DNA from: Nitrosopumilus sp.
Lineage (GTDB): Archaea > Thermoproteota > Nitrososphaeria > Nitrososphaerales > Nitrosopumilaceae
Reading direction: 5' to 3'
Length of the DNA: 64,000 bases
Assembly: GCA_965218695.1 (NCBI GenBank)
Contig: OZ244651.1
Location: 320,001-384,000 of the forward strand
This document shows positions 45,475 through 64,000 of this stretch, piece after piece; position 1 is the first letter of the stretch, and each line of letters begins with the position of its first letter. The notes below the pieces were generated by a model, which made no database searches, had not been told where the DNA came from, and saw only the letters and a program-made list of their open reading frames with translations. The position numbers and the translations under genes were made by a program.

Positions 45475-47621
45475 GTAAGAGGTCGCCTTTGCGAAGCGAT
45501 TCCGTGCCTGATCTGTTCCGATTAATTACCAACTGAGCTACGTTTTTGACCATAAATACCCGATTAATTGCACGTTATCAACACGGTCCTCAGGCAGGGC
45601 GGTTTTCGGATCAAGGCTCTTCCGGTTGGATCTTTTGCGCCGCATTTTCCGGCAGGCGCTGCGTGCCCAAAAGCTTTATGGATCATGCCTTCCCGTGTTA
45701 TGGCGTGGTGCCTGTAATCGACTTGGAAAAGATTGACTGGAACTCCGTAACCGACACCAAGTCCCTCTTCGAATCCGTCTTGGACATGCTCAAATCCAAG
45801 GACGAGGAGAGCATGGCACTGAGAAAAGACATCGAGCAGCTGAAGGAGGAGGCAGAGGCCTTCTCAGGGGAACACGCGATGCTGACGGAGATGGATGCCA
45901 GGATCAAACTGCTGGAAGAAGAGAATGTGCAAAAGGACTCCGAGATAGAGAAACTGAGGGCAGAGAATGCCGCCCTCCTGCAGGGATGCGACGTCTCGCA
46001 GGCAGTCATGGACAGGATAGCCCGCCTGGAACGGCAGGCATCAGAGCATGCCTCTCAGTTAAGGGAGGCGCGCGCGGCCAACTCGGCGCTGGCAGCCGAG
46101 AATCTGGGCATCAAAAGCCGCCGCTCCCAGAAGCGGCTCCGGGAATCACCCGGGCCTGCGCCGGACCCGTTCAGGAAGGTCGTCTGCCTGCGCACCGGCC
46201 GTGATCCTCCCCCGATATCCGAAAAAAAGCTAGTCGACATGCCCGCCTGCCCGCACGGCCATGCCCTCTCGAAGGAGCCCACCGAGGTGACCATCCGGGT
46301 AGTCGAGGAGATCATCGACGGGAAGCTGACCGGCATCCAGTATACCGTCGTCCGCAGGTACTGCGGGGAATGCGGCAGGCAGTTTGCCCCCGAGATCCCA
46401 GGGGTCGTCCCAGGGGGGCGGTTCGGCGCCAGCCTGACGTGCCTTGAGACGACGATGAGGATGTACAACATTCCCTACGAACCCATCCGCAAGCTGATCA
46501 ACATAATCTACCACGCAGGCCTTGCCAAGTCGACAGTCATCAGCCACGTGGATGCCGTTACGGGATCCCTCCACCCGCTCTACGAGGAGATGCTCGAGGA
46601 TATATTCTTCTCAGGGCATGTCTTTGGCGACGAGACCAGCTGGAGGGTAGCCGGGATACTGTACTGGCTGTGGATACTAGTCGGTGACAACTCGACTGTC
46701 TTTTACGTGGACAAGAGCCGGGGAGGAGACGTGCTGGAGACCCTGCTTGGAGGGTACGGCGGCCACGTCACCTCTGATTCACACGCTGCGTGGAACCGCA
46801 TCGGCAGGACCCACCAAAAGTGCCACTACCACTACCTCCGCGAGATCCTCCGCACCCTGACCATGAAGAACCCCGGGCCCGAATTCAAAAAGTTCGCCAA
46901 GGCCCTGAAGGGGATAATCACCGATTCCTGGTTCCCGGAGAAGGGACTCGACCCGGACGACGACGAGGCCACGCGAAACCTCAAGGTGCGCAACCTATTG
47001 GCCAGGGTGAGGCGCCTGATCTCCGGCGAGTATACAGACGCCCACTGCAAGCGGTTTGTCAAGCGGCTGCGGCGCGAGATCACCCACCTGTTCCCATTCA
47101 TCCGCCTCAACACAAAGTGCCATAACAACGATGCCGAGCGCCCCCTGCGGCCCAGCGTCGCATCCCGGAAGGTCTCAGGCGGCAGCAAGAGCCTTGCCGG
47201 CGCATACAACCACGCCGTCCTGGCCACCGTCCGCGAGACGTGCAGGAGGCGCGGAGTCAACCCGCATGACTTTTTGGTTGACTATATGCACGGTCTTGTC
47301 GAAAAAATTCCGACAGGAGCAGCAGCAACTGCATAAATCCTGCAAAATCCACTCCCTGACTGTTCCATGCAGACCCGTCGCGCCGGCAGCCTGGCATAAC
47401 CTCGCCTGATCCCGGCACAATTCACCGCCCGGCCGCTTCAAAAAAGGCCACTTCGCAAACCCGATCACCGGATCGGCCAAAACGTAGCTCAGTCTGACCC
47501 TCCCGGAAAAAACCTGAAATAATGCCAATTAAATGGGCATTTACGGCCGAAAACGTAGCTCAGTTGGTAATTAATCGGGGCAGATCAGGCACGGAATCGC
47601 TTCGCAAAGGCGACCTCTTAC
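45475..47621 (+). mobile_element. IS66-family (single-ORF, ISBst12-like) element, copy A, with ~72-bp TIRs and no matching target duplication
   Basis: GTAAGAGGTCGCCTTTGCGAAGCGATTCCGTGCCTGATCTG..CCGATTAATTACCAACTGAGCTACGTTTT at both ends (2 mismatches); flanks CAACAAGC vs CCTGTATG. Confidence 0.92.
45705..47336 (+). CDS. IS66-family transposase
   Basis: Coiled coil, CPHGH..CGECG zinc finger, DETSW, SDSH, QKCHYH, NNDAERPLR; start approximate. Confidence 0.92.
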   Translation: MVPVIDLEKIDWNSVTDTKSLFESVLDMLKSKDEESMALRKDIEQLKEEAEAFSGEHAMLTEMDARIKLLEEENVQKDSEIEKLRAENAALLQGCDVSQAVMDRIARLERQASEHASQLREARAANSALAAENLGIKSRRSQKRLRESPGPAPDPFRKVVCLRTGRDPPPISEKKLVDMPACPHGHALSKEPTEVTIRVVEEIIDGKLTGIQYTVVRRYCGECGRQFAPEIPGVVPGGRFGASLTCLETTMRMYNIPYEPIRKLINIIYHAGLAKSTVISHVDAVTGSLHPLYEEMLEDIFFSGHVFGDETSWRVAGILYWLWILVGDNSTVFYVDKSRGGDVLETLLGGYGGHVTSDSHAAWNRIGRTHQKCHYHYLREILRTLTMKNPGPEFKKFAKALKGIITDSWFPEKGLDPDDDEATRNLKVRNLLARVRRLISGEYTDAHCKRFVKRLRREITHLFPFIRLNTKCHNNDAERPLRPSVASRKVSGGSKSLAGAYNHAVLATVRETCRRRGVNPHDFLVDYMHGLVEKIPTGAAATA

Positions 47622-50016
47622 CCTGTATGTCACCGATCTTCCCCATCAGCCTGCCTACCAATACGAGTAGCTCGTCAAGCTCCCTGTCCGGAAAGCACTC
47701 CCTAGAGTGCACCGTATCGTACACGCTAGTAAGCCTGTCCACCCTGCCGATTCTCTGCACCAACCTCATGGGGTTCCACGGCAGGTCGTAATTGACCACA
47801 TAGTTGCAGTCCTGCAGGTTCTGCCCCTCAGACATCACCTCTGTCGAGACCAGTATGTCGATCTCTTCGTCCGGTCTTTCTTCCTCTTCTGACAAGTTAG
47901 CGGTAGGCGAAAACGCCTTTATGATCTTGGGACGGTCAGATTTCCTTACGCTGCCCGTGATCAGGCCGACCCTACTCCCCTCGAACTTGCCCTGTAGGTA
48001 TTTTTGCACGTACTTGGCAGTGGCCGTATACTCCGTGAACACTAACACCTTCCTGCTACCTGACTCTAGAGCCCCGTCCTCCCGGATCGTCTCGGCCACG
48101 ACTGCCGCCTTCTTGTCGTCTCCTCGTATGGCATTCAGGGCATCCAGATATTTTTTCAGATGAGCCAAGTCGGACTTTATGTCTCCCTTCATGCGTCCCA
48201 CGTCGTACTTGCTTGCGTCTTGCTGGGGCAGTCGCGTTATCTCATCCATGAACTCCTCATCTCTTGGCTCGCCCTCATCACCATCGCCTTCCATGTCCTT
48301 GGCGTTCCACCTTAGCATGATGCGGTTCAGCTCTTTTGGCGCCACGATGCGGTTCTCATCCAAGAGTCTGCCAAAATACTTGAACAGTCTGATCTTGTTT
48401 TCTAGGCTGGCCGTTATGGCACCAATGCTGCTCTCGAACCTCTTTAGGAGCAGTATGGTCTGGAGATGCGCCAGCACCTTGTACCTTTGCTTCTCCTCGT
48501 CGGTGAGGGTGGTGTTGTACATCTCCACCCCGTATGGTGTCATGTGGAGGGAGTTTATCGTGTCAAGCAGGTCTTGGTATATGTTGCCGAAGCGTTCTGT
48601 CATGCTGTACCGGATCGGCCTGTAGTTCCTTTCAGGAAACGTGATGGGTTTTCCACCAAGTGCCACATCCGGGTACACTTCCCTGATGAACGTCCTTGTC
48701 CGCCTCACCATAATGGCCTCGAGAAGCAGTTGGACTTTCTCCAGTCCCTCGTCGATCTTGTGGTTTGCTGCCCTTCTCATGTAATCGTACAGGTCTGGTA
48801 TCCCAATGTCGGCAAAATGATCGTCCTTCTCGCCGGTGATTATGGATACCTGATAGTAGAGATCCATGAGGGAGTTGTTGATCGGCGTGGCCGTCATCAA
48901 CAGGACCTGCTTCCTAGGCCCCAGACTGAGCAATTTCATCAGGTTATGCCGCCTGCCGGTGATGCGTGAGCGGAAGTTTTGGCTTTCGTCTATCACTGCA
49001 AAGTCGTACTTTTTGTACTTGAATACGTCAAAGTCTCTCCTGCCGGGCTCCTCAACGCCTATGGTTTTTGCCCTGATCTGTGCCTCATCGAGCTTGTCCT
49101 CCCAGACCGTGTCCCTTACCTGTGCCGGGGCTATCAGAAGTATCTTCCTGTTCTCGGCCATCTTTTTGCGCATAACCTCCAAGCCTATGTGCGTCTTGCC
49201 CAACCCGGTAGAGTCGGCAAGCATCGCCCCGCCGTGCTCGTCCATTGTCTGGAGCAGCACGGATACGGCGTCCTGCTGGAACTTGGGCAGATCGGCAGAT
49301 ATGTGGCCTTCCTCATCACCCATCGCCGTCAGCGCCCTCCTGTACTTTTCAAAGAGCATCTTCAGGTACACCTCGTGCGGCGATGCGGGCATGCCGAACT
49401 TGGACTGCTCCAGCACCTGAAGCATATCCTCCTTGGCGTCCCTTGCACCATCCCACATCCTCTCGTACCAGTCGCGTATCTTCTTCCAAGTTGATGTAAC
49501 AAAGATGCCCGCGTTCAGCTCGTCATTTTTAGATAGGCCCGCCTCCGTAAAGTTGCTGGAGCCTATGATGGCACCCTCCTGGCCCAGTATGTAACACTTT
49601 GCGTGGTTGAACCTGGATCTTCCCAAGCGCACCTGCACGTTATCACGCCTCAGCAGCTTGATCAGTCCAGTGACGTCGTCCATACGATCCGTGTCAAGCT
49701 CCTCCCCACCTAAGCCCGATTCCAAGGTCTCAGGAAGCGTGTTGGCGTATTTGGTATACTCTTCAAACGCGTCAAAGGACGGGGGCCTCAGGGCGTCCTT
49801 GCCAACTAGCAGCCTGAACCTGAACGAATCATTTGATGCTGCCCTCTCAAGTGCCTCTCGCACGGCCCCGTATCCGTTGACCTCAAAGTACCCGGTGGAG
49901 ACGTCAAGGAAGTTTATCCTGTCCAGATTCATGTTGATGACGCTTGCCATGTCATGTTTCCTGTTGTCAATGATGTCCGGCTCGGCCTTTTCCTTGTCAA
50001 AATTAGGCATAGTCAT
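47622..50016 (-). pseudogene. PLD-nuclease/SNF2-type helicase fusion, C-terminally truncated by IS66 copy A
   Basis: HAK..GSSN.T..GL..N.ELN (PLD), LADSTGLGKT, DESQN, TATPINN, SEGQNLQ, YDLPWNPMRLVQRIGRVDR; reading frame runs into the IS TIR at 47621. Confidence 0.88.
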
Positions 50017-50485
50017 GGCGATCCTCCAGCGATCTTGTCATAGCATGTGGGGGCCAGTTTGCGAACCTCGCCGTAGAACTGTCGCAGGACCTTGTTGTCA
50101 TTAAAGTCGGCCGACTTAGCCGTTAGAAGGTCGGAGTTTTCAAGGAATTTGAAGGACTTTAGGATTGTTTCGTATTCTTTTTTTGTCAGTCCGTACGCGT
50201 GGGCGACCAGCGCGTCCAGTTTGGCAGTTGTACGGATACGTTCAGAGGGAGTCAGGAAGACATTCTCCATTCTCAGAGACTCGGCAAACCCCTCGAATTC
50301 ATCAGGACCCAAGACAAGTTTGGCAGACAGTTGCACCACATCATCGTAATGCTGCCTGTTTGGAATTGAGACTGTCTTGATGACCGTCGACACATGCATC
50401 TGAACCTTCGAGCGGGATACAAAATCAAACGGCATGGAGTTGAGGATACCGCACAGGTACGCTATTTGTTTGTTGTAGTCATCGC

Positions 50486-51732
50486 CAGCTAAGCGAAAAG
50501 TGCCTCATCTGAGATCAGGTAGGCGGTTTGGACTGGCGTATGAGGAGTGATTCCAACTGCACCTTGAACGTGAGCATGGTCATGACACTCTGCCTTTCGG
50601 TACCGTCAGAAAGCATTGCCCTGACGATTATCCATTCATTGTACAATGTTAGGGAATAGTAAAAACACAACATCCGCGATTCCATGTCCGAAATCCGCGT
50701 CTTGGCCCTGCACTCCTCGATTTTACCGTACCCGGTCTCTATTCCCCATCTTTTGGCATAAGCCTCCGTCTTGATTGTGGGGTGGTTTGTTGCAAACCCG
50801 ATGTATTTCTCTTCCGGGACATCAGGGTCTTTGGCGTTTTTTCTTTCAGTTATTATCATGGAATATTCGACGGAGCCCTGGTTGTTCTCAATCACGTTTG
50901 TTGAGATCCTTTCCCTCTTTCCTTGTGCAAAATCCTGCAGGGCTTCCACCACGTTGGGCGTGTTCCTGCACGGCATCAGGTACCTTACGCCGTTTGCCCG
51001 CAGCCTGCTTATCGTGTCGACTGAGAAGAATTCCCGGTCAAGCAGCGCCAGGCGGATCCTGATGCCCATCCCTGCCATGGTCTTGAGGACTGCATCCACG
51101 TAATCAGGCACGAATTCGAGCCTTTTGAGGTATGATGCTGCAAGGACCATGCGCATCTTGTCGTTTACGCACTGGACTGTCATGTAACGCTCAAAATACG
51201 TGGTTCCGTTTTTGTATTTGGAACGGGTCAGCTCCCCTCCGGGTGCCCGGTCATAACGCGGTATGAGGTGCATGTCGATTGCGATGTCCAGTCCTTCTTT
51301 TGGGAATTTGCCCAGTTTTTTGAATGTGTCAAGTTGCACTGCCACCATTTCTTCGAATGCGCGCTGAACCGTGCCCTGCTCCATCCCCTTGATTGCCGAT
51401 GCATGCCACCTGTCGGAGGGAGCGTCGCAGTGCGTGCGCTTTACCGCGTTTGCGCACCCGCCTACGGACGAATCCATGGTGGCTCCCCTCAGCATGCCGT
51501 GATTTAGATCGTCTGTTCCAAATACCGCATTGTACCTGTTTGACGTGTTGGCGCAGGCAAGCATGTTTTTCATGCCGCTTGCGACATCTTGATATATTCT
51601 TGGATTGTTCAGTAGATCGCGGCCCTGCTTGGTTTTTTGTCTAGACAACAAAAACCATAGGGCCGTACCCTTATTGATCTGCTTGCATTCTTGTCAGATT
51701 TTGCCTAGATCAAAGCACATTTCGCTTAGCTG
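50486..51732 (-). mobile_element. ISH3/IS4-like element, 1247 bp, flanked by 6-bp direct repeat CATCGC
   Basis: TIRs CAGCTAAGCGAAA.GTGC at both ends; CATCGC at 50480-50485 and 51733-51738. Confidence 0.92.
50515..51651 (-). CDS. ISH3/IS4-like DDE transposase
   Basis: IAIDMH.IPRY, LLDREF, FATN, YAKRWGIETGY, LYNEW. Confidence 0.92.
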   Translation of the reverse strand: MLSRQKTKQGRDLLNNPRIYQDVASGMKNMLACANTSNRYNAVFGTDDLNHGMLRGATMDSSVGGCANAVKRTHCDAPSDRWHASAIKGMEQGTVQRAFEEMVAVQLDTFKKLGKFPKEGLDIAIDMHLIPRYDRAPGGELTRSKYKNGTTYFERYMTVQCVNDKMRMVLAASYLKRLEFVPDYVDAVLKTMAGMGIRIRLALLDREFFSVDTISRLRANGVRYLMPCRNTPNVVEALQDFAQGKRERISTNVIENNQGSVEYSMIITERKNAKDPDVPEEKYIGFATNHPTIKTEAYAKRWGIETGYGKIEECRAKTRISDMESRMLCFYYSLTLYNEWIIVRAMLSDGTERQSVMTMLTFKVQLESLLIRQSKPPT

Positions 51733-54700
51733 CATCGCTGGTCTCTAGGCGTCCGTTACGGGTCAGCACGACGGAGCGCATTGAATATGTATGAAATCTT
51801 TGCGGCGGGATTATTGCTGCTATCGTTGTTCGCATGTTGGTTGAACTAGATATGTCGCGAAACGCCAGTCTGAATGAATGGCAGAATTTTCTGGAGTCAT
51901 TCTTGTATGCGCGCTTGTGTTTTTCCCTTTGCAGGCCTGCGGACATGGGAGTGGTAAATATGGGCCTTGCAAAGGCATGGTTGAACTGGTGGATGTTGTT
52001 TCCCTCAAGCACCGGCCAGCCCTTCCCGCCGTCAGTCAGGAGGTCGGCATCGTTTGTCTTATGAAAACCACTTGAGAGTGCCACGCTCCAGCCGCCCCCC
52101 AATCCCATTCCCAACGTATCACACGCAGACATACTGGCCAGCACGGCAAGAATCTTCCCGTCAACCTCGGGGATGTGGAGATCGTCAGGAGACAGGTCGC
52201 GGATCATTCTCTTGGAGATCGTATGGAATTTTTCTTTCTCTGCGTCCTTGGTTTCAAGCGATGACAGGTTGTGCAGGTAGAATCCGGAAGGAATGTCGTC
52301 CCCTCCAGGCAGGTTTTTGATTGTCAGGAGCACGAACCGATACCTGCTGTCTATGGGGAATATCTTTTTGCGGTTCTCAAAAACGTACATCTGCCGCACG
52401 TCTGAATCCAGAATCTGTTCCCGCATTCCTGCCGAGCCCGTGTTTGAGAGTACCTGGGAGGGAATGAGTACGGATATGACGCCTCCCTCCGACACCAATG
52501 CCAGCATGCGCTCCATCATTATCTGCCACATGTCCCTGTCTCCCACGCCTTGCAGGGCATACGTTTTGTAGAATTCCGACTTTTCACGAAACGACTGGCG
52601 AAAATCGTCGTACTCTTTCCGGATGGCGGGATCTTTTAGGATCTCATCCTGTTTGGTTATTTTTTTCGGTTTGGTGTCGATGGCGCGAAATGCCGGGTAG
52701 TGCCGGGTAAAGAATTCGTCATCGGATGGTTTTACCTTGTCCCACGGCGGGTTTCCCACGATCAGGTCAAAGCCGTGCCGGGCATCCACAAACGCGTCCA
52801 TCATCTCAAGCTCCCAGTGGAAGAACCCATACTTGCTTTTCAGCCGCCGTGCAGTCGCAAGCGTATTTTGCATGTCTGCGTCTTCTGCTATCCGGCCGGA
52901 GAACCGGCGTATGTAGCCTGCCGCGTTCTTGCGAGCCGTTTTAGGTATCGCATTCTTGTCGATCTGTGCAGTGCAGTACACGTCCAGCATCTCCTTGTGG
53001 GGGGACATCACTCGTTCATACTCGTCGTGAGCGTCCTTACTCCGGTGGACCTGCTTTATGGTGACGTCTGCACTCTTGCTGACGCGATCGATTATGACTC
53101 CTATGTTGTCTGTTTTCTCCATCCAATCATCCAGCGATGCGCCCTTTGGATCCCCTATGTCGCGGCGCCACGCTCCCATGGTAGAGTCGCCTGCCTTGAT
53201 GTGATGATTCAGGTATGTCAAAGGAACGCCAATTGCAAAAGAGTCAAGCCACAGTGAGACGCGGGCAAGCTCGACTGCAAGCGGGTTGACGTCAACTCCA
53301 AATATGCACCGCTTCATCACGCGGCGCTTGAGCAGAACGTCATAAGTCAGCAATCTCTCGTTTATGGTTATGCCGTGTTTCTTCTGTTCGGATATTACTG
53401 TCTGCCTGTCTTTTTCTATATCGGCAAGCAACGGGTGTTGTGGGTATTTCCTGAGCATGCCGGTGGCCCATTTCGTAATCTGGTTCAACGCCTCAACCAG
53501 AAAGTGGCCGCTGCCCATGGAAGGATCCAATACCTGTATGTCAAGCAGTCTGTCCGTGCATGCGCGGATGTTTTTCTCATTTGGCATGTCTCCGTACCTG
53601 CTGAGATCAGGCGGCAGTAATTTTTCGCGTTCGTCAAATATCGGCTCAAGTCCGCGCTTGACCAAAAACGATACCATCTCCTGCGGGGTGTAGTAGCTTC
53701 CAGATGATTTTCTCGAGAGCGAACCTGTCCTTGACACTATGTAGAGGTCATTTTTCTTGTACGAGTACGTGGATTCGGCACGGGATGCAACCTCACGCAC
53801 AGCCTTGCCGTCTTCTACCAGCATGATGTCCCGATCTGCCTAGCGTACCTCGAATTCCATCAGAGTCTCGTAGATGTTTCCCAAGTGCCGTACGCCCAAA
53901 CTGGCATAGTCTACAGGTTCCCCGTCCTTTTCCATGAACCCCCTCAGCGTCCGGACCGCGTGGAAATTCCTGATGTTGATGCCGTCAATCTGCGGAGCAC
54001 TCCTGAAGAGGTCGCTGTTGTATTGCGGCAGGTTATGCTCCGGACTCCCATTCCTGACCCCTCGGAACAGATTCAGGACATGCTTCCAGCAACCGTACGA
54101 GTCAGGATCCGACTCCATGTCGTCAAGAGAATAGCGTAGCGCCAACAGGGACAACGGAGCGTATTTTTTGTCCCTGACAGGTAGCAAGTCACGCGATTCT
54201 GCATACAACAGGAACCATATGCGGTACATGATCTTTAGCGCAACCTCCTTGGCAGAGGCCAGATCGCCCGACTCGTACCTCCGAGTACCGTCATACCCCA
54301 GCACGCCTTTTACCAAGTCCACAAAGATGCCATCCGGCCTCAAAATCCGCTCAGCCAAGTTCGCCTCGAGATCTTGTACGTAGTCCCTGCCGTCGTCGAA
54401 TACCACGTCTATTTTGGCCTTGCCGTTTATCCTCACGTACGACGCGGCGCCGAATACGGCCGCCAAGTACCGCAGGACTGACTTTTTCCTAGATTTCAGG
54501 TTTATCTCAAAGTAGTTGGTGGTGGATGCAGATACCCTCGACGTGTAAAGCCTCCACGTGATCCCGTCCGTGAGGATGACCCACGGCGTCACGGCAAGTT
54601 CTGCCACCGCCCTGTAGCTTGGTGCCACCTCGGCCTGGTTCCTCTGGATTCCAAAGTCCGTCCCCTTCCCAACCACCACTATCGATGCTTCTGGAAAGGA

Positions 54701-55661
54701 ATGAGAACGGTAAACGCCATCATCATGATATTCAAGATCCGACCAGCCAAGCAACTCAAGCGACTTTGCAGAATCTCCATCCCATGCATCCTCCAAGCCA
54801 TCCAGTTTTGTCGCACCGCCTTCAAGCAGTCTGGTCTTTAGGTAGTGTGTAGAGAAGACGCCCTTGTTGATGAAATCTACGGCAGTGGTGGGTATGTTCT
54901 GTATAGTACTCTTGATGGCCCGCCGCATCTTCAGGCTGGTGCCGGCAGACGCAAAACCGGCAGAAGAAAGCGCCGTGACCACCTGTTCGCAGGCGTCAGT
55001 GCCGTCTAATGCAAAGACCAAGCTGCTTGATGCAGACTTGAAGTAGAGGCTGTAGTTTGATTTCAGACAGAGCAACACAGCACAGTGAAAGATGCCGGAG
55101 ACCTGTCGTTTTGCGTCCGGGATAGCCTTGGCCTTGTGCTCAAATAGTAATACCGGGATTGGAGTGTCGTTACCGTCAGCCCGCGTGAACCTGTACCGTC
55201 CCCATCCGGCGGAGTTGTTGTCGGGGAGGGGCCTGCATTCTTCGGATAGACCCATGGAATCCAAGACTCCTTTGATCCTGTTTGGAAATTGAGGGGTTTT
55301 TTCAGAATCTTTTGTCACTACACTACCGCCATTGTTTATTGGATTGGCACAGGTTCAGTGATAAACGTATTGACATTAAGATTAGTGGGGGTTATCTTAC
55401 GTGTAGCCTGTTGCGTAATTTCCTCCGCTCAGACTGAACGTGCACAAGCACCGTATGTATAATCCTGCACCACCCACGCCCCCATTATCAATCTGTTGTA
55501 CCTGGGCAACAAAACACGGTGCTGCATACAATTCGTTGATCGACATATTGCCCGTCTGGCACGCTCATCAATCATCCATTTCGCGGTCCGCTACGGCACC
55601 GAGATGCCTTCGAACCATAGAAATAGGTACGCTTATAGATCCCATTTTGTGAATGTGCCTA

Positions 55662-56048
55662 ATGCTGAAAACCAAGTCCATATATGCGCCGTCGGATCCT
55701 AACGACGGGGAGCGCGTTCTGGTCACTAGGTTCTATCCGCGCGGCGTAAAACGGGAGCGCTTCCACGAATGGCGGCGCGAGTTGGCGCCTAGCGTCAGGC
55801 TGCTCAAACAATACAAAGAGATGGAAATATCCGAAGATGAGTTTGAGCGATGCTTCAAGATTGAAATGAATGCCGTTGCAAGCAGACAGGCCATCAAAGA
55901 CTTGAGAACACGTGCAATGGTATCCAACGTGACGCTCCTGTGCTACGAACCGGAAGGAGAGATGTGCCACCGCAACATCTTGCAGGAGATCATACGCAAC
56001 ATGTTACACGCTTCGCTTAAATCTAAATACGCTGATTACCATGAATGA
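55662..56048 (+). CDS. DUF488 (YeaO-like) family protein with intact CxE...CHR motif
   Basis: DGERVLVTRFYPRGVK, W..ELAPS, F..C F..EM, TLLCYEPEGEMCHR; start 55653 or 55662. Confidence 0.85.
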   Translation: MLKTKSIYAPSDPNDGERVLVTRFYPRGVKRERFHEWRRELAPSVRLLKQYKEMEISEDEFERCFKIEMNAVASRQAIKDLRTRAMVSNVTLLCYEPEGEMCHRNILQEIIRNMLHASLKSKYADYHE

Positions 56049-56768
56049 ATTTCTGTGTTGAGCCGCGTTACCCACCAGGAAATATTTGTCAAAATTCGGA
56101 TCGGTGATGCCCAGGTTTGTCAGTCCCTGTTCCATGTTAGCAGGGTTCTTTCTCATCCATTCATAGATGCCCCATTCTAGAATCTGCTGATCGTGAGGTT
56201 TTGCTGACCGGCAGCCCGAACAGTGATACTGTACGCGAGGCTGTTTCTGGTAGTTGTGTATCGTGAGGAACAGCACGTCAGAATCCAGCGTGGATTGCAC
56301 GGATGGGTTGTAGTTTTTTCTGTCTGCCATCCAGCTCTTGATTATCTTTGGTTTGATTATGCCCAAACTTCGTTTGGCGTCGTTAAGGTCCTGTACACAG
56401 CTGACACCGAATTCATTGTACAGTTTTTTTAGCAAATCAATCTGTTTTGGACGTGTCAGTTTGTCAACTACTTGGATCTTCTCTCTTAGTCTAGACCATT
56501 CGTCTTTCGATCCCTGAACTTTCCAGCTTTCGGCTCTGGTGTCTTGCGGGTTTTTTTCTAAAGGCATGCTTACGACATTCCATCGAGGCATCTTAGCTTC
56601 GGGCGGCACGGGGTATATCCTAACAAGTCCGTGTTTGGGAGAGTAACACGCCGTGCATACGGTTCTTCGGCTGTCGCTTATCTCATCAGGAACTGCGTTT
56701 CCCAACATAATAAGATCGTCCATTACAACTCTGTCCGGATCCACATTACCAAGTATGGTCAGTATCAT
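56004..56768 (-). CDS. Hypothetical 254-aa protein of a family often found next to DUF488 (possible OB-fold, possible C/H zinc site)
   Basis: TVCTA...RIYPV, D.R.ESW, SLGIIKP, YHCSGC....H..QILEWG, FLVGN pattern; overlaps the DUF488 gene tail-to-tail by 45 bp. Confidence 0.75.
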   Translation of the reverse strand: MILTILGNVDPDRVVMDDLIMLGNAVPDEISDSRRTVCTACYSPKHGLVRIYPVPPEAKMPRWNVVSMPLEKNPQDTRAESWKVQGSKDEWSRLREKIQVVDKLTRPKQIDLLKKLYNEFGVSCVQDLNDAKRSLGIIKPKIIKSWMADRKNYNPSVQSTLDSDVLFLTIHNYQKQPRVQYHCSGCRSAKPHDQQILEWGIYEWMRKNPANMEQGLTNLGITDPNFDKYFLVGNAAQHRNSFMVISVFRFKRSV

Positions 56769-57270
56769 AAATCATTATCTATAGCTAAGATCAAAAGTTC
56801 GTGAATACATGATAACCCTGCCCACCCACCACATGTAGCGGGCTGACCCCTAAATACACATGGTCACAAAGACCTAGTTCGTGAATGAGGCTATCCGAGC
56901 TGCTGTGTTACTGACCATCCGAGCCCTTGGATGTTAGTTACATGTCTTGATCCCGTACTTGTACTCAAACAGGTACAGGCCGTAGTCCACGCATTCCATG
57001 GCAAGCGCAATGTCCCTCATGGTTTTGTCCCAACCATGCGTGTGGTTTCGTCCTGCACGTATTAAAGACCCCCTGTAATCATGGCAACAGTTCTTCCAGA
57101 AGCATACCAAGTGCTGGCCGTCACATGGCGGCATCATTTTCTACGTGCCGTGCCTCACGTCCTCCATGGCATGCATGTTTTGCGGCAAGAGGCACGGCCA
57201 ATACCAGATCATTGGATCCGCACGCCCTTCGTTTTATTTGCACGAATTTTGGCGTGTCATCATGAATGGT

Positions 57271-57715
57271 TTATTCGTCTAACAAATGACGATCGTCGCC
57301 TTTCATACGGTCACGCAACTTTTTCAAGTTTTGTGCTCGTGCAACCTGATCATTGTTTTCACATATCTCTCGTAGAACAGTCACTTGAGACGCACTCATG
57401 TATTTACTGCCCAGTAGATCAACAATTCTATCGATAATCTTGTTTGCTGTATCAAAATTATAGGCTCCCGATAATAGTTTTAGCAACATATCCGGATTAT
57501 CGGGTTCTAATGCCATCATGATGTCACACGCCAAACCGACATAATTTGGATTTGAATGATTCAGACGTGGACAATGATGCCCGCCTGTAAATCCGATTGG
57601 AACTTTGCCGTCAAAAGTTACCGGGACTATTGTTTTCTTCAAAGCTAGAGCCATGCCTGCCTCCTGTTCCGTAAAATTTGCACCGTGATAATCTACAGAA
57701 ATTAGTTGAATAAAG
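57271..57715 (-). pseudogene. TIR-domain protein, 5'-truncated by an IS66
   Basis: Frame stays open upstream of the track ATG to the IS junction: FIQLISVDYHGANFTEQEAGMALALKKTIVPVTFDGKVPIGF (TIR betaC-alphaC-betaD with catalytic-position Glu), then a C-terminal helical domain. Confidence 0.75.
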
Positions 57716-59241
57716 GTAAGTGTTCACGTCGTGCCTAATTCAGTTCACTCTTGGGTAAATTTTGTGCAAACCACAGATCCAAATAGGATGGTAATCCAAA
57801 CCCGATGTGAAAAGCCAGGCTGAACTCAAAAAGATGTACACGGATCTCAAGACTGAGAACATCAAGCTCAAGCAGACGATTGAGATGCAAGGGCAGATAA
57901 TTGAGGAATTGAATCTGGCAGTTGCTGATCTTAAGCGCAGGCTGGTGCGGCATGACAATTACAACACCCCGTCATCACAAAAAAGGGGGCCCGGATGGCC
58001 TGACACAAAGGGAAAAGGCGACGAAAAGAATGCCTACAATAAATCCACAAAAGCCTCCCGGGATCAAAAGGACCGCGTGGATGCGGCCGGCAGCGGGAAG
58101 TCGCGCGGGGGGCAAAAAGGCCACATGGGCCGCACCCGCAAGCCAAAACCCACCGAGTTTGAGGAACACACCCCGGAGGCCTGCCCCGAATGCGGCTCGG
58201 GTAGCCTTTCCATAGTGCAGTCAGAAAAACGCGACATTACCAGGGTGGAGCGCACGATAAAGGTCATCACCACGCGCCACACCATAAACACGTGTCGCTG
58301 CTCCTGCGGTCTGGTGGACATCAAGCCCGAGACCGGCCTTCCAGACAAGGGCAGCTACGATCCGAGCATAACGACTGATGTTGCAGACGATTACGTGTGT
58401 CGCATGCCGTTTAGGATGATCGCAGACCACATGTCGCGGTACGGAATTACACTCTCCTCGGGCACGGCGCACAACATAATGCGCAGGCTGGGAACGTCGC
58501 TGGGCGCCCCTGCGGCAGCCATTGCCGCCATGATACGCAAGGCCAAGATACTGCACGCCGACGAGACATCGATTCACCTAAACGGCCGCAACGTCTGGGT
58601 GTGGATACTGCACGATCCGCTGACCGGGCACGCGCTGTACGTGATACGGGACAGCCGGGGGGCAAAGGTTCTGAAAGAAGCGCTTGGGGGTTGGGACGGC
58701 ACGTTAGTGTGCGACGGCTGGACGGCGTACGGAAAATACCGCGTCCAGCGCTGCTGGTCGCACATAATACGCGAGGCCAGGGACATCTGCAACCGCAATC
58801 CGGACTGCCCAGGCGCGCGCAACGTCCTGAAGCACCTGCGCATAATCTATGATTATGCCAGAAGGGCAAGCAGGAAACGCTCGCGCTCTCTCCGGGACAA
58901 CGCGTCTGCCATGCTGACGTCATGCATCGAAAAGATCGTTGCAAGGTACGCCGACGATCCAATATTGGAAAAATTCATGGTCAAGATCAGCAATGCTGGC
59001 AGCGACCTGTTCCGGTTCGTGCTGAACCCAAAGATCCCGCCTACAAACAATGCTGCAGAACGCGGGTTGCGCGAGATAGTCGTGCACAGAAAAATACGGG
59101 GCAGCATAAGGGCAGAGGAGACGATGACGTGGATGGCGAATTTCTTTTCATGTGTAATGACATGGAAAAACAAGAAATTGGATTACTTGGCGGAGATTGC
59201 AAAATACGCCTAAAAATGAGTTAAACCACGTGAACACTTAC
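57716..59241 (+). mobile_element. IS66-family element (second type), no matching target duplication
   Basis: TIRs GTAAGTGTTCACGT / ACGTGAACACTTAC; flanks GAATAAAG vs GAATTTCT. Confidence 0.9.
57807..59213 (+). CDS. IS66-family transposase
   Basis: NYNTPSS, GGQKGHMG, CPECG, ADET, CDGW, QRCWSH, TNNAAERGLR. Confidence 0.93.
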   Translation: MKSQAELKKMYTDLKTENIKLKQTIEMQGQIIEELNLAVADLKRRLVRHDNYNTPSSQKRGPGWPDTKGKGDEKNAYNKSTKASRDQKDRVDAAGSGKSRGGQKGHMGRTRKPKPTEFEEHTPEACPECGSGSLSIVQSEKRDITRVERTIKVITTRHTINTCRCSCGLVDIKPETGLPDKGSYDPSITTDVADDYVCRMPFRMIADHMSRYGITLSSGTAHNIMRRLGTSLGAPAAAIAAMIRKAKILHADETSIHLNGRNVWVWILHDPLTGHALYVIRDSRGAKVLKEALGGWDGTLVCDGWTAYGKYRVQRCWSHIIREARDICNRNPDCPGARNVLKHLRIIYDYARRASRKRSRSLRDNASAMLTSCIEKIVARYADDPILEKFMVKISNAGSDLFRFVLNPKIPPTNNAAERGLREIVVHRKIRGSIRAEETMTWMANFFSCVMTWKNKKLDYLAEIAKYA

Positions 59242-59305
59242 GAATTTCTTATGAAATATCCGGAATTTAAAAACGAAACGTAACTGAAGTATTAATTAAA
59301 AAACA

Positions 59306-60946
59306 GTATCTGTGTAGTTTTTTGATCAAATGTTGAACTCCATATCTACAATCAGAAAATCCGCGTCTGTCTAATTTTTTAAAACTATTTTTGATCACTT
59401 GATCGAGTTTTTCTCTCCGTCCTAATTTTTAGATCATTGTTGCCCACGGTTTGCATATGTCTGATGATAATTCCGAGTCAAGGATTGCAGAACTGGAGGA
59501 AAAAGTGGGTATGATGGCAGAGCAGATGGCCGAAAAAGACCGGCAGATGGCCGAAAAAGACCGGCAGATGGCCAAACTCGCTGATCTTTACGCTGCCGCC
59601 CTCAAACAGATCCAGGATCTCACGGCAGAGTTGCAGGAGGCAAAGGGCATCATATCGGCTGCCGTTGCAAGGAGCATCGGCGCAAAACCGGACAAAAAGA
59701 CCGGCAGTACCCGGCGCCGCGCAAAGGGCAAGGGCAAGGCCAAGGGCAAGCCAAGTGACCACAAACGCACGGGCCTTGCGCGTCCTGAAAGAATAGACGC
59801 AGAGGAGACGGCAGATCCCCACACGTGCGACAACTGCGGCAGCTCCGACCTCTCAGAATGCGTGTCCACGTACACAAAGGTGGTAAGGGAGGCTGCCAAG
59901 ACGGAACTAAAGCACATCAAGGTGACAGTAAAGAGAAGGCGTTGCAGGAACTGCAAGAGGACCGTGTCCGGCAGGACTCCGCTGGCACTGCCAAACTCCA
60001 GGTACGGGATCAACTTTATGATAATGATGGTCATCCTCCGGCTGCACGGCATGTCAGACCTCAGAATATGCAATATTGTCATGATGATGTACTCGGCAAG
60101 AATCACGGAATCTGCGATAAACCGCATGGTGTGCAGGATGGCCCGGGAGCTCGGGCCGCTGTACGAGAAGATCAAGGAGGAGGTAAGAAACTCGCGTGCG
60201 ATAAACGGGGACGAGACAATCTGGCGCGTCGACGGCACGAACTATTGGCTGTGGGTGGCTGTAGCCAGGTACGCCGTAATCTACGAGGTGCACCGCCACA
60301 GGAACTCGAAGGTTCCAAAAAAGATGCTCGGCAAGGACTACCCGGGATGCGTCACGTCTGACTCGTGGGCCGCGTGGAACGTCATCGGATCCGAACACCA
60401 AAAGTGCCACCTTCATTACGCCCGGGACATCAAGGACACCCTGAAATACAAGAATCCCGGCTACGACTACAAGCGTCACGCAAGGACGCTGCGCGCGATA
60501 CTGTGGGACTCGCACATCGACGGCGCCGTTCCGGGAGGGGCAGACGCGCTTGCCGCAAAGAAGAGGCTGGATCGTCGTATCGCGTCACTTATCGGCAGGC
60601 TCGAAAAGGACCGCGACTGCAAGCACTGCAACAGGATGCGCAAGAGGCTGGTGCGGGAAAAAGGCCACCTGTTTGCGTTTCTGGAGACAGACGGCGTCGA
60701 ATACCACAACAACCGGGCAGAGCGGGCCATCAGGCCGTGCGTCATCCTGCGCAAGAACAGCAACGGGAGCAGGTCAAAGAAGGGTGCAGATGCCATTGCC
60801 ACGCTGATGAGCATCAAGCAGACATGCAAGGCAAGGGGAGATGATCTTGGCACGATCCTGCGCGAGGGCCTGGCTCCACGTCAAAAAACTGCATAGACGC
60901 GCGTAGGCATGGAGTTCAACATTTGATCAAAAAACTATGCAGTTAC
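59306..60946 (+). mobile_element. IS66-family element (third type) with perfect 8-bp target duplication AAAAAACA
   Basis: ~38-bp TIRs GTA.CTG..TAGTTTTTTGATCAAATGTTGAACTCCAT; AAAAAACA at 59298-59305 and 60947-60954. Confidence 0.92.
59457..60896 (+). CDS. IS66-family transposase with N-terminal QMAEKDR heptad repeats
   Basis: CDNCG..CRNC, GDETIW, SDSW, QKCHLH, HNNRAERAIRP. Confidence 0.93.
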   Translation: MSDDNSESRIAELEEKVGMMAEQMAEKDRQMAEKDRQMAKLADLYAAALKQIQDLTAELQEAKGIISAAVARSIGAKPDKKTGSTRRRAKGKGKAKGKPSDHKRTGLARPERIDAEETADPHTCDNCGSSDLSECVSTYTKVVREAAKTELKHIKVTVKRRRCRNCKRTVSGRTPLALPNSRYGINFMIMMVILRLHGMSDLRICNIVMMMYSARITESAINRMVCRMARELGPLYEKIKEEVRNSRAINGDETIWRVDGTNYWLWVAVARYAVIYEVHRHRNSKVPKKMLGKDYPGCVTSDSWAAWNVIGSEHQKCHLHYARDIKDTLKYKNPGYDYKRHARTLRAILWDSHIDGAVPGGADALAAKKRLDRRIASLIGRLEKDRDCKHCNRMRKRLVREKGHLFAFLETDGVEYHNNRAERAIRPCVILRKNSNGSRSKKGADAIATLMSIKQTCKARGDDLGTILREGLAPRQKTA

Positions 60947-61488
60947 AAAAAACAAAAAATCCCACTGTGCCGTACGAAATAGGGCTTACCCCTGTCCGGA
61001 GGGCAGGGAATATGGGAAGCCAGGTGATCCCCCAGCCTAGTAAAAATGCCGACGTGTAGGTCAGGCCAAGACATGCCAGCCTGTGGCATCCTATTGGCAG
61101 TATGAGAATTCGCGTAATGCCAAAACTGGTTCAATCCAAGGCATGATGATCGGGGGCAAAAGTGAATCGCCAATGCACAAATAGCTGAAACCATGAATGT
61201 CTTCACGCGCCGGATCAGGGAACTCTGGGTCTGACACCTGGAACCGAGCCCTGACAGCATGAATCCCAGTAGAATTTCCTTTTTCCCTTGCAATGCAGGA
61301 CATCTTGTACTGTAGGTGCTGAAAGAAAAATTTGCCCTCCTGATGACAGATAGCTTTGCCCATTATTACATAGCGCTACGGGAATCCGAAAATCTTTTGA
61401 ATCCACGTTTTATTCACGGATGCGTTCAATCCCAGGATTCCTAAATAAATGGTCGGAACAGATAAATTTCTTCCCACGAACCTTATTC

Positions 61489-61854
61489 ATGGAAAGAAAC
61501 CTTGAGCTCGAAGACAATGCAAGGGGGCTCGTGGTTCGTTTTATAGAATCGCTTAGTCAAAATGATCTCAAAAGTGCCAGAAACTGCGTAAATGATGATT
61601 TTGAATATATAAGCCCACTTGGGAATTATGATAGAGCAGAGCCATTCTTCAAACGCATGGAAGCGTCGCCTCTAAAATTTAACATCAAAAAAACCTTTGT
61701 AGATGGAAACGAGGTATGCGTGTTTGTTGATGTTCCTTTGGGATCTTTAACCCTGCTTGCATGTGGCCGGTACACTGTGGAAGAACAAAAAATCCGTTCA
61801 TTAAATCTAATATATGATCCACGGGTATTCCTAGAGGGAATATCCAACAAATAA
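61489..61854 (+). CDS. NTF2/SnoaL-like domain protein
   Basis: VVRFIESL..ND, DDF.Y.SP, FVDGNEVCVF, VEEQKI..L..IYDP; AT-rich relative to surroundings. Confidence 0.8.
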   Translation: MERNLELEDNARGLVVRFIESLSQNDLKSARNCVNDDFEYISPLGNYDRAEPFFKRMEASPLKFNIKKTFVDGNEVCVFVDVPLGSLTLLACGRYTVEEQKIRSLNLIYDPRVFLEGISNK

Positions 61855-62237
61855 TATTTTTCTTAGATTACCTGAGTGCCGCTCGCGAGTAACTGCCCGT
61901 CCCGGATAACCGTAAATGCCCGCCGGCAGGCGTTAGTTGCAGGCGTTGTGACAGAATCAGTCGTCTGAGGCCTTGGCTCGTGATTTGGTGTCCTGTCCTG
62001 CGCCTGCCGCAGGCGCCACGGCTTAGATTTCAGGCACCGCGAGTATTCTTGCCTCGCTTGGCATTGCAACACCGCCACGAACCCGGCATCGCTTATCTGC
62101 CAGTTCCCTCAAAGGAGGGTCTGCCACGATTCGACTGCCCAACGTCTAAACTCGAACCGCTGCGGCACGCAATGACTAACCGTGCCGAACCCGACTGCCG
62201 GAATTGAAAAGACTTCCGTGAAAAAACAAGTGGAAAA

Positions 62238-64000
62238 GTAAGAGGTCGCCTTTGCGAAGCGATTCCGTGCCTGATCTGCCCCGATTAATTACCAACTGAG
62301 CTACGTTTTCGGCCGTAAATGCCCATTTAATTGGCATTATTTCAGGTTTTTTCCGGGAGGGTCAGACTGAGCTACGTTTTGGCCGATCCGGTGATCGGGT
62401 TTGCGAAGTGGCCTTTTTTGAAGCGGCCGGGCGGTGAATTGTGCCGGGATCAGGCGAGGTTATGCCAGGCTGCCGGCGCGACGGGTCTGCATGGAACAGT
62501 CAGGGAGTGGATTTTGCAGGATTTATGCAGTTGCTGCTGCTCCTGTCGGAATTTTTTCGACAAGACCGTGCATATAGTCAACCAAAAAGTCATGCGGGTT
62601 GACTCCGCGCCTCCTGCACGTCTCGCGGACGGTGGCCAGGACGGCGTGGTTGTATGCGCCGGCAAGGCTCTTGCTGCCGCCTGAGACCTTCCGGGATGCG
62701 ACGCTGGGCCGCAGGGGGCGCTCGGCATCGTTGTTATGGCACTTTGTGTTGAGGCGGATGAATGGGAACAGGTGGGTGATCTCGCGCCGCAGCCGCTTGA
62801 CAAACCGCTTGCAGTGGGCGTCTGTATACTCGCCGGAGATCAGGCGCCTCACCCTGGCCAATAGGTTGCGCACCTTGAGGTTTCGCGTGGCCTCGTCGTC
62901 GTCCGGGTCGAGTCCCTTCTCCGGGAACCAGGAATCGGTGATTATCCCCTTCAGGGCCTTGGCGAACTTTTTGAATTCGGGCCCGGGGTTCTTCATGGTC
63001 AGGGTGCGGAGGATCTCGCGGAGGTAGTGGTAGTGGCACTTTTGGTGGGTCCTGCCGATGCGGTTCCACGCAGCGTGTGAATCAGAGGTGACGTGGCCGC
63101 CGTACCCTCCAAGCAGGGTCTCCAGCACGTCTCCTCCCCGGCTCTTGTCCACGTAAAAGACAGTCGAGTTGTCACCGACTAGTATCCACAGCCAGTACAG
63201 TATCCCGGCTACCCTCCAGCTGGTCTCGTCGCCAAAGACATGCCCTGAGAAGAATATATCCTCGAGCATCTCCTCGTAGAGCGGGTGGAGGGATCCCGTA
63301 ACGGCATCCACGTGGCTGATGACTGTCGACTTGGCAAGGCCTGCGTGGTAGATTATGTTGATCAGCTTGCGGATGGGTTCGTAGGGAATGTTGTACATCC
63401 TCATCGTCGTCTCAAGGCACGTCAGGCTGGCGCCGAACCGCCCCCCTGGGACGACCCCTGGGATCTCGGGGGCAAACTGCCTGCCGCATTCCCCGCAGTA
63501 CCTGCGGACGACGGTATACTGGATGCCGGTCAGCTTCCCGTCGATGATCTCCTCGACTACCCGGATGGTCACCTCGGTGGGCTCCTTCGAGAGGGCATGG
63601 CCGTGCGGGCAGGCGGGCATGTCGACTAGCTTTTTTTCGGATATCGGGGGAGGATCACGGCCGGTGCGCAGGCAGACGACCTTCCTGAACGGGTCCGGCG
63701 CAGGCCCTGGTGATTCCCGGAGCCGCTTCTGGGAGCGGCGGCTTTTGATGCCCAGATTCTCGGCTGCCAGCGCCGAGTTGGCCGCGCGCGCCTCCCTTAA
63801 CTGAGAGGCATGCTCTGATGCCTGCCGTTCCAGGCGGGCTATCCTGTCCATGACTGCCTGCGAGACGTCGCATCCCTGCAGGAGGGCGGCATTCTCTGCC
63901 CTCAGTTTCTCTATCTCGGAGTCCTTTTGCACATTCTCTTCTTCCAGCAGTTTGATCCTGGCATCCATCTCCGTCAGCATCGCGTGTTCCCCTGAGAAGG
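62238..64000 (-). mobile_element. IS66-family element copy B, inverted near-identical copy of 45475-47621, cut by the window edge
   Basis: Same TIR at 62238; identical protein; one synonymous CCC/CCA difference seen. Confidence 0.95.
62523..64000 (-). CDS. IS66-family transposase (5' end outside the window)
   Basis: Translation identical to the corresponding part of copy A. Confidence 0.93.
   Translation of the reverse strand, partial: FSGEHAMLTEMDARIKLLEEENVQKDSEIEKLRAENAALLQGCDVSQAVMDRIARLERQASEHASQLREARAANSALAAENLGIKSRRSQKRLRESPGPAPDPFRKVVCLRTGRDPPPISEKKLVDMPACPHGHALSKEPTEVTIRVVEEIIDGKLTGIQYTVVRRYCGECGRQFAPEIPGVVPGGRFGASLTCLETTMRMYNIPYEPIRKLINIIYHAGLAKSTVISHVDAVTGSLHPLYEEMLEDIFFSGHVFGDETSWRVAGILYWLWILVGDNSTVFYVDKSRGGDVLETLLGGYGGHVTSDSHAAWNRIGRTHQKCHYHYLREILRTLTMKNPGPEFKKFAKALKGIITDSWFPEKGLDPDDDEATRNLKVRNLLARVRRLISGEYTDAHCKRFVKRLRREITHLFPFIRLNTKCHNNDAERPLRPSVASRKVSGGSKSLAGAYNHAVLATVRETCRRRGVNPHDFLVDYMHGLVEKIPTGAAATA

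Follow-up and report, generated by a model that had tools for sequence, protein, structure and literature searches.

Why does the reading frame of a short gene annotated as "hypothetical" stay open beyond its own start codon, right up to the edge of an insertion sequence (IS), and what did that frame once encode? The question arises at one locus of Nitrosopumilus sp. The window analysed here is a stretch of 64,000 nt of contig OZ244651.1 (positions 320,001-384,000, forward strand; assembly GCA_965218695.1), and all coordinates refer to positions in it. The genome encodes an archaeal AmoA (E = 3.4e-116), so the host is an ammonia oxidizer, in agreement with the first-pass annotation of this DNA. 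The features of the locus itself are as follows.

57271..57715, minus strand: probable 3' remnant of a gene for a TIR domain plus a C-terminal helical domain (from the translation, the family profile and the alignment to protein P0001)
57271-57654, minus strand: annotated 127-aa "hypothetical" ORF, with its annotated ATG at 57654
57550..57714, minus strand: putative TIR half that survives, residues 1-55 of the peptide (from the invariant columns of alignment A1, the secondary structure of the models and the alignment with AbTIR, Cat1 and SARM1)
57274..57549, minus strand: C-terminal all-helical domain, peptide residues 56-147 (from alignment A1, the model and a match to the PADLOC PD-T7-3 model)

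The remnant comprises 147 codons, a stop codon and one nucleotide of a cut codon. Upstream of the annotated ATG, the frame is open for 20 more codons (57655-57714) and runs into the left inverted repeat of the IS, whose end lies at 57716. This extension had been pointed out in the first-pass annotation, and the 42-residue string given there was recovered exactly. The translation of 57271-57774 on the minus strand reads ...T(stop)TLTFIQLISVDYHGANFTEQEAGMALALKK...HLLDE(stop). Its first complete codon outside the IS is TTT at 57712-57714 (F1 of the peptide); the three codons that precede it, T-L-T, are IS sequence, with a stop just beyond them. Neither a stop nor a frameshift interrupts the 147 codons. 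The remnant has a GC content of 40.4%, compared with 52.8% genome-wide, and this offset indicates that the gene is of foreign origin and was acquired horizontally.

The pattern of a TIR domain had been recognized in this peptide by eye, together with a Glu at the catalytic position, and a TIR_2 profile search and a Foldseek search with the 147-aa peptide had been proposed as proof. On the peptide alone, that proof failed. Neither Pfam nor NCBIfam gave a match at E ≤ 1, and the curated threshold of TIR_2 or TIR was not reached; a Foldseek search of the fragment model against solved structures gave none at E ≤ 0.001, the TIR chains being weak (SpbK at E = 0.31 and 8fz9 at E = 0.57); and PADLOC returned nothing besides PD-T7-3 (E = 0.018). 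The fragment fails these profile and fold tests because only half a TIR domain remains in it. Consequently, the putative TIR assignment rests on transitive homology, that is, on the relatives of the fragment.

A word-indexed search led to P0001 (224 aa; 42% identity, E = 2.0e-24), to whose residues 66-210 the peptide residues 1-145 align without a gap. An exhaustive search of 1.84 billion representatives retrieved 49 proteins at E ≤ 1e-3; in the best of them, P0002 (E = 2.4e-32), the peptide is aligned from its first residue to residues 69-214. At least 35 residues precede the aligned start in 42 of the 49 representatives, so the intact homologs do not start at the methionine of MALALKK, the annotated start. 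That start usually falls at position 60-90 of proteins of 206-250 aa, and 12 representatives carry longer N-terminal extensions. Another six are short (125-191 aa), beginning inside or just ahead of the aligned region; these look like fragments or other broken copies, and N-terminally short forms thus recur. A 1243-aa protein, P0025, with 11 matched stretches, was rejected as a relative: it is repetitive, its Pfam matches are scattered over unrelated families, and no stretch of it is significant. Alignment A1 has 31 rows, made up of 29 of the 49 representatives, P0001 and the remnant peptide; it excludes P0025, P0043 and all of the six short and twelve long proteins.

All 30 aligned relatives match Pfam TIR_2 (best E = 1.4e-20), and 25 match Pfam TIR as well; P0001 scores 55.9 bits against TIR_2, for which the cut-off is 28. 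A family profile built without the window sequence matches the remnant frame with E = 1.8e-32 over profile positions 63-208 of 222, and the next-best match in the genome has E = 1.1, so the match of the remnant is not a chance one. Furthermore, an AlphaFold2 model of P0002, built from alignment A1 (pLDDT 92.2, pTM 0.86), gave 52 Foldseek matches in the PDB at E ≤ 0.001, in which TIR domains had a probability of 1.00. The leading matches were the TIR-APAZ of SPARTA, SpbK, a Hydra TIR and the TIR domains of SARM1 and MyD88 (E from 1e-5 to 1e-3). Thus, the intact relative P0002 is predicted to have the flavodoxin-like, five-stranded alpha/beta TIR fold. These comparisons support the reading that the short "hypothetical" is probably the rear two-thirds of a TIR-type gene.

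Within the surviving TIR half, we found strand C (FIQLIS), helix C with Glu18 at its start (codon 57661-57663), strand D (IVPV) and the PIGF loop with Gly41. Glu18 and Gly41 are invariant in all 31 sequences of A1, which bears out the catalytic-position Glu of the first-pass pattern. A profile search of PDB sequences found Cat1, AbTIR and SARM1 among others, and in the alignment the conserved Glu of the family is paired with that of WTNYE (AbTIR) and that of WCWDE (Cat1), the same motif being present in SARM1. By chain count, rather than from a numbered structure, the aligned residue is AbTir 208. The E208A mutant of AbTir has lost its NADase activity (PMC10641520). The helical domain that had been noticed behind the TIR half is likewise a conserved domain of the whole family, in which Gln110 (in an S..Q motif) and Asn121 (in N.Q) are invariant or nearly so. 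The model of the 147-aa fragment has a pLDDT of 87.1 overall and of 91-97 over residues 71-140; of the TIR sheet, it contains strands C and D plus a short bridge only. About 65 N-terminal residues are absent, and with them strand A (FLSY), helix A, strand B, the BB-loop and helix B. Without these elements, the remnant can form neither the TIR fold nor the NAD+ pocket. It is non-functional as an enzyme even though the catalytic-position Glu is kept, and no function is expected.

What cut the gene can be read from the elements on its 5' side.

57716..59241, plus strand: IS66-family element of 1526 bp, with a 468-aa transposase at 57807-59213 (DDE_Tnp_IS66, E = 3.3e-40)
59242..59305, no strand: AT-rich spacer of 64 bp to the right of the 1526-bp element, unrelated to the TIR gene (from its sequence; no match to the TIR N-terminal half)
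59306..60946, plus strand: second IS66-family element of 1641 bp, with a 481-aa transposase at 59451-60896 and 44-nt inverted repeats

The first element has 17-nt terminal inverted repeats that begin with GTAAG (57716-57732 and 59225-59241), and its border at 57715|57716 is also fixed by the 30 full-length copies in the genome, which start and end at the same bases. Its transposase, its terminal inverted repeats and the perfect 8-bp target duplication found at 22 of the 30 copies place it in the IS66 family. It differs from canonical IS66 in having a single transposase ORF and a length of only 1.5 kb, and its copy at the remnant lacks the duplication. Canonical three-ORF IS66 elements are larger. 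As the first-pass annotation had noticed, the flanks of this copy, GAATAAAG on the left and GAATTTCT on the right, form no 8-bp duplication. The departures from the rule among the 30 copies fall into distinct kinds. Three copies are composites with partial tandem copies and have the duplication in their outer flanks. Two others (C1:1021727-1023252 and C1:1092028-1093553), mutually inverted, have swapped their 8-bp duplications (GTTATTTT and GTTTGCAC), and three, that of the remnant included, have unrelated flanks. The swapped flanks imply an inversion of about 70 kb through recombination between IS copies, or else an assembly flip; they show, with the same reservation, that such IS-IS recombination occurs in this genome. 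The second element in the window does have its target duplication: the 8 bp AAAAAACA recur without a mismatch at 59298-59305 and 60947-60954.

The genome carries a massive load of these elements. Besides the 30 full-length copies of the 1526-bp element there are fragmentary ones; the 1641-bp element is present in about 20 copies (90-100% identity) and a 1248-bp element in at least 10.

A simple insertion would leave the front of the gene on the far side of the IS. A profile search of the spacer and the right side found no N-terminal TIR half there, as the first reading of this DNA had also concluded. Moreover, a 61-position profile of the family N terminus, run against the 59,354 six-frame open stretches (≥25 aa) of the whole genome, gave a best match of E = 8.2; the assembly searched has 9 contigs and is 99.99% complete. 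The idea that the missing half might lie beside another copy of the same IS was thus not borne out, and the reciprocal flanks, GAATAAAG on the right or GAATTTCT on the left, occur at none of the 30 genomic copies either.

Comparison with G129, a genome of the same genus, added a further line of evidence. Left of the remnant, three collinear blocks over 47621-56803 are about 97% identical to G129 near 0.276 Mb, the only interruptions being a 1.25-kb IS (50485-51733) and 3.2 kb that G129 has and the window lacks. Beyond the right end of the two IS elements, positions 61255-62238 correspond to a G129 site near 1.594 Mb. The two flanks therefore map to distant G129 sites, and the IS cluster is a rearrangement junction. 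No relative of the TIR gene was found in three G129 regions, which cover about 38 kb at the syntenic locus and 16 kb at the other matching site. The absent duplication, the genome-wide absence of the front half and the break in synteny support the view, already held in the first-pass annotation, that the 5' half was probably deleted, that is, lost by IS-mediated deletion or recombination and not hidden across a simple insertion.

Two further observations concern the stretch between the remnant and the end of the G129 synteny. Positions 57017-57198 are 85% identical to G129 sequence near 1.920 Mb. A repeat of about 120 bp at 56805-56926 has 15 blastn matches in the genome and a very high contig depth in four sequencing runs, and Rfam and tRNA scans of the flank, this repeat included, gave no match. 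Lying exactly where the G129 synteny ends, it may be a MITE-like element.

For the breakage itself, we infer the following order of events. The IS66-family element would have landed in the codons of ...C|FIQ..., where the TIR fold passes from helix B to strand C. The 5' part of about 65 codons would then have been removed, along with the promoter and the right-hand target duplication, in a later event mediated by the IS, either a recombination between this copy and another one of the element or an adjacent deletion. The truncation appears to be recent, since 29 of the 30 IS copies are at least 99.8% identical (one is at 94.8%) and the 147 codons have acquired no stop or frameshift. Taken as a whole, the segment at 57271-57715 on the minus strand is very probably a pseudogene, the last 147 codons of a horizontally acquired TIR plus helical-domain gene of about 215-235 codons that was beheaded at the IS.

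The remnant is not the only damaged gene at this locus. On its 3' side lie the following features.

56004..56768, minus strand: intact 254-aa gene, PADLOC candidate PDC-M19B (E = 1.2e-13; 97% DNA identity to G129)
55653..56048, plus strand: intact DUF488 gene, 131 aa (DUF488-N3a, E = 7.5e-29)
51710..55318, minus strand: type IIG restriction-methylase pseudogene, in ORFs of 492 and 704 aa (PADLOC REase_MTase_IIG, E = 4.6e-70)

The DUF488 and PDC-M19B-like genes are convergent with a 45-bp overlap, and both are about 97% identical to G129; the pair (55653-56768) is a candidate two-gene defence module. The type IIG gene, an intact 1242-aa ORF in G129, has three lesions here: an in-frame TAG at 53840-53842 (CAG in G129), a frame change near codon 26, and the loss of its last ~150 codons to the 1248-bp IS at 50485-51733. 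Thus, of the cluster with DUF488 and a restriction-modification-like module that had been described around the remnant, both neighbours are real and the restriction gene itself is broken. Two defence genes of this locus, the TIR gene and the type IIG restriction-methylase, are dead, and the defence island is decaying.

To place the remnant among its kin, we searched 401 genomes of the archaeal class with the family profile. A match at E ≤ 1e-5 was present in 74 of them, the unpublished genomes G326 and G231 among these with TIR-only matches, and most matches covered the TIR part only. Both domains were matched in 11 of the 400 other genomes (G122, G152, G186, G135, G304, G250, G117, G305, G335, G283 and G106), some of which have 2-4 copies. 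A pattern search of genome contigs based on a 6-row alignment gave 8 matches, none of them confirmed. Some family copies are broken by stops or frame changes, namely L022 (G303:C1:1444078-1444723), one on G305:C15 and one at G283:C1:1628119-1628760, and decay of the TIR plus helical-domain gene recurs in the genus.

At nine of ten relatives' loci, the central ORF matches TIR_2, the exception being the broken copy of G303. No conserved neighbour gene emerged among the 123 ORFs around these ten copies. Transposases are present at five of the ten loci and an integrase at one, and the neighbours include N6_N4 methylases, Mrr_cat, Hypoth_Ymh, a STAND-like ATPase, a ThsB-type TIR, a UvrD/PD-(D/E)XK protein and a ResIII helicase. 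In the class genomes searched, family copies always lie in variable or mobile regions. The first-pass annotation had brought up Thoeris, CBASS and short Argonautes as the setting of such TIR domains; neither at the window locus nor at the ten relatives' loci was a ThsA, SIR2, SLOG or Argonaute partner found, and the 123 ORFs contain no Macro gene. A link to any one of these three systems in particular is not supported. The best-supported picture of the intact relatives is that of a TIR effector which consists of a single, stand-alone protein and includes a domain for regulation or sensing.

Three other accounts compete with parts of this interpretation. According to one of them, the junction is an assembly artefact, in which the contig was misjoined through one of the ~30 identical IS copies, while in the real genome the TIR gene is intact or simply interrupted by an IS. 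Three circumstances are in its favour: a 1.5-kb repeat with 30 full-length copies is the kind of sequence involved, the synteny with G129 stops exactly at the IS cluster, and the sole bridging contig that we saw (run X1) extends just 26 nt into the IS. A misjoin, however, would leave the 5' half somewhere else, and it was found in none of the 9 contigs (best E = 8.2); nor does GAATAAAG, the reciprocal flank, occur at the right end of any IS copy. The contigs of four sequencing runs contain no intact allele and no loose end at 57715, with thin cover at 57598-57658 in three of them. In none does the gene continue into non-IS sequence at 57715, which counts weakly, given that contigs can drop variants. 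We regard an artefact as very improbable. An equally improbable account holds that translation from the MALALKK methionine yields a functional 127-aa protein, a helical domain standing alone that might serve as, for example, sensor, decoy or regulator. The frame is indeed intact over 147 codons, AGGAGG lies 5 nt ahead of the ATG, the C-terminal domain is complete and confidently modelled, and a database protein, P0012 (125 aa), has a similar start. Yet the homology runs on for 20 codons 5' of the ATG, up to the IS border, the proteins are full-length in 42 of the 49 representatives, and the AGGAGG merely belongs to the codons for E-Q-E-A-G. Such a protein would also open with one-third of a TIR domain, a piece unable to fold by itself; the original promoter is gone, and the exact 127-aa sequence is absent from a collection of 15 billion proteins. 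A beheaded pseudogene accordingly remains our reading of the segment.

The remaining account concerns the intact family members, which might be TIR-fold proteins of the nucleoside 2-deoxyribosyltransferase type, or purely scaffolding ones, and not NAD+-consuming defence effectors. Pfam Nuc_deoxyrib_tr is indeed also matched by 5 of the 31 members at E ≤ 0.01, and Foldseek lists deoxyribosyltransferases at E of about 4e-4. The TIR models nevertheless do far better (30 of 31 matched, with E = 1.4e-20 as the best for TIR_2), the leading structural matches are NADase TIRs, the Glu of the family aligns with the catalytic-motif Glu of AbTIR, Cat1 and SARM1, and the genes sit in mobile and defence neighbourhoods. 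This account therefore seems unlikely, if less so than the two preceding ones. Archaeal TIR domains can cleave NAD+. Judging by sequence and predicted structure, we infer NADase activity and a role in defence for the intact relatives, in which the helical domain would sense a cue of infection and thereby bring about self-association of the TIR domains and cleavage of NAD+.

How closely does this presumed TIR effector family resemble known systems? With the prokaryotic TIR NADases (AbTir, the TIR-APAZ of SPARTA, SpbK and Cat1; TIR_2, PF13676), it shares the TIR_2 match of the relatives and the superposition of the P0002 model. It differs from them in its own C-terminal helical domain, and the window copy keeps strand C onward only. 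The family has no APAZ/Argonaute, coiled-coil or CARF partner. Thoeris ThsB is likewise a small TIR protein of about 200 aa, and up to 23 of the 31 members match the PADLOC ThsB models (best E = 1.7e-9); these matches, however, cover only the TIR part of the family, and no neighbouring ThsA gene (SIR2, Macro or SLOG) was found beside the window gene or in the 123 ORFs around the ten relatives' copies. The PADLOC single-gene candidate PDC-S66 stands alone too and is matched by 28 of the 31 A1 sequences (best E = 2.3e-9), but only over its profile positions ~144-225 of 282, the TIR core; the remaining architecture differs. A literature search retrieved no description of this TIR plus helical-domain family and no NAD+ cleavage assay of it.

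A further, possible likeness concerns the helical domain. The C-terminal ~110 positions of the PADLOC PD-T7-3 model are matched by 13 of the 31 members, best by residues 113-217 of P0006 (positions 320-427 of 432; E = 4.9e-8); the remnant's own tail matches model positions 347-403 with E = 0.006-0.018. PD-T7-3 has been renamed DARNA and is a HEPN RNase whose C-terminal domain binds ssDNA, which activates the enzyme (10.64898/2026.02.22.705581). The effector of DARNA is a HEPN RNase with an Rx4H motif, whereas the N-terminal domain of the family is a TIR domain. Several searches for this likeness gave little. Among 11 archaeal tails, the only match was that of the window itself; none of 8 intact archaeal relatives matched the PD-T7-3 model at E ≤ 0.01, and none of the 401 class genomes did so at E ≤ 0.001, a search in which the controls also gave no match. 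No DARNA chain turned up in our copy of the PDB, the C-terminal-domain profile reached at best E = 0.2 among PDB sequences, and the best score of an ESM Atlas search with the domain, 0.77, was too low to be useful. No longer protein sharing the C-terminal domain of P0006 was found among 445 candidates at E ≤ 0.01. Two longer ORFs, in G263 and G071, were considered as fusions carrying the domain and were discarded: one overlaps a phage-integrase match and the other is without a family. The accessible portions of the DARNA (PD-T7-3) literature make no mention of TIR fusions of such a domain.

Kinship between the helical domain of the family and the ssDNA sensor of DARNA is thus a weak lead, and we consider it rather doubtful. 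A bolder proposal, to which we give the same small chance, is that the intact relatives form an undescribed one-protein abortive-infection system, in which a DARNA-like domain would detect viral ssDNA and switch on a TIR NADase. If this were true, the same sensor module would be wired to two effectors, HEPN and TIR, and the system would be present in 11 of the 400 other class genomes and in many metagenomic proteins, with the window copy as a casualty of the IS burst that is dismantling the island.

For the locus itself, the consequence is that a "hypothetical protein" annotation becomes a defined pseudogene, which adds to the known TIR-domain genes and is an ordinary finding in that respect. 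It shows how the antiviral genes of an ammonia-oxidizing archaeon are eroded as ISs expand, one element having reached 30 full-length copies here and at least two further IS types being involved. Furthermore, it defines a compact TIR plus helical-domain family that recurs in the archaeal class, in mobile or variable regions and without a partner gene. To our knowledge, almost no archaeal defence system has been tested so far, and TIR-based immunity in archaea could reasonably be tested on this family. One of its loci, L018 (G117:C1:2100000-2119999), is a TIR-rich variable island: its 20 kb hold two full family copies, a TIR-only match, a ThsB_TIR protein, an Mrr-type nuclease and several transposases.
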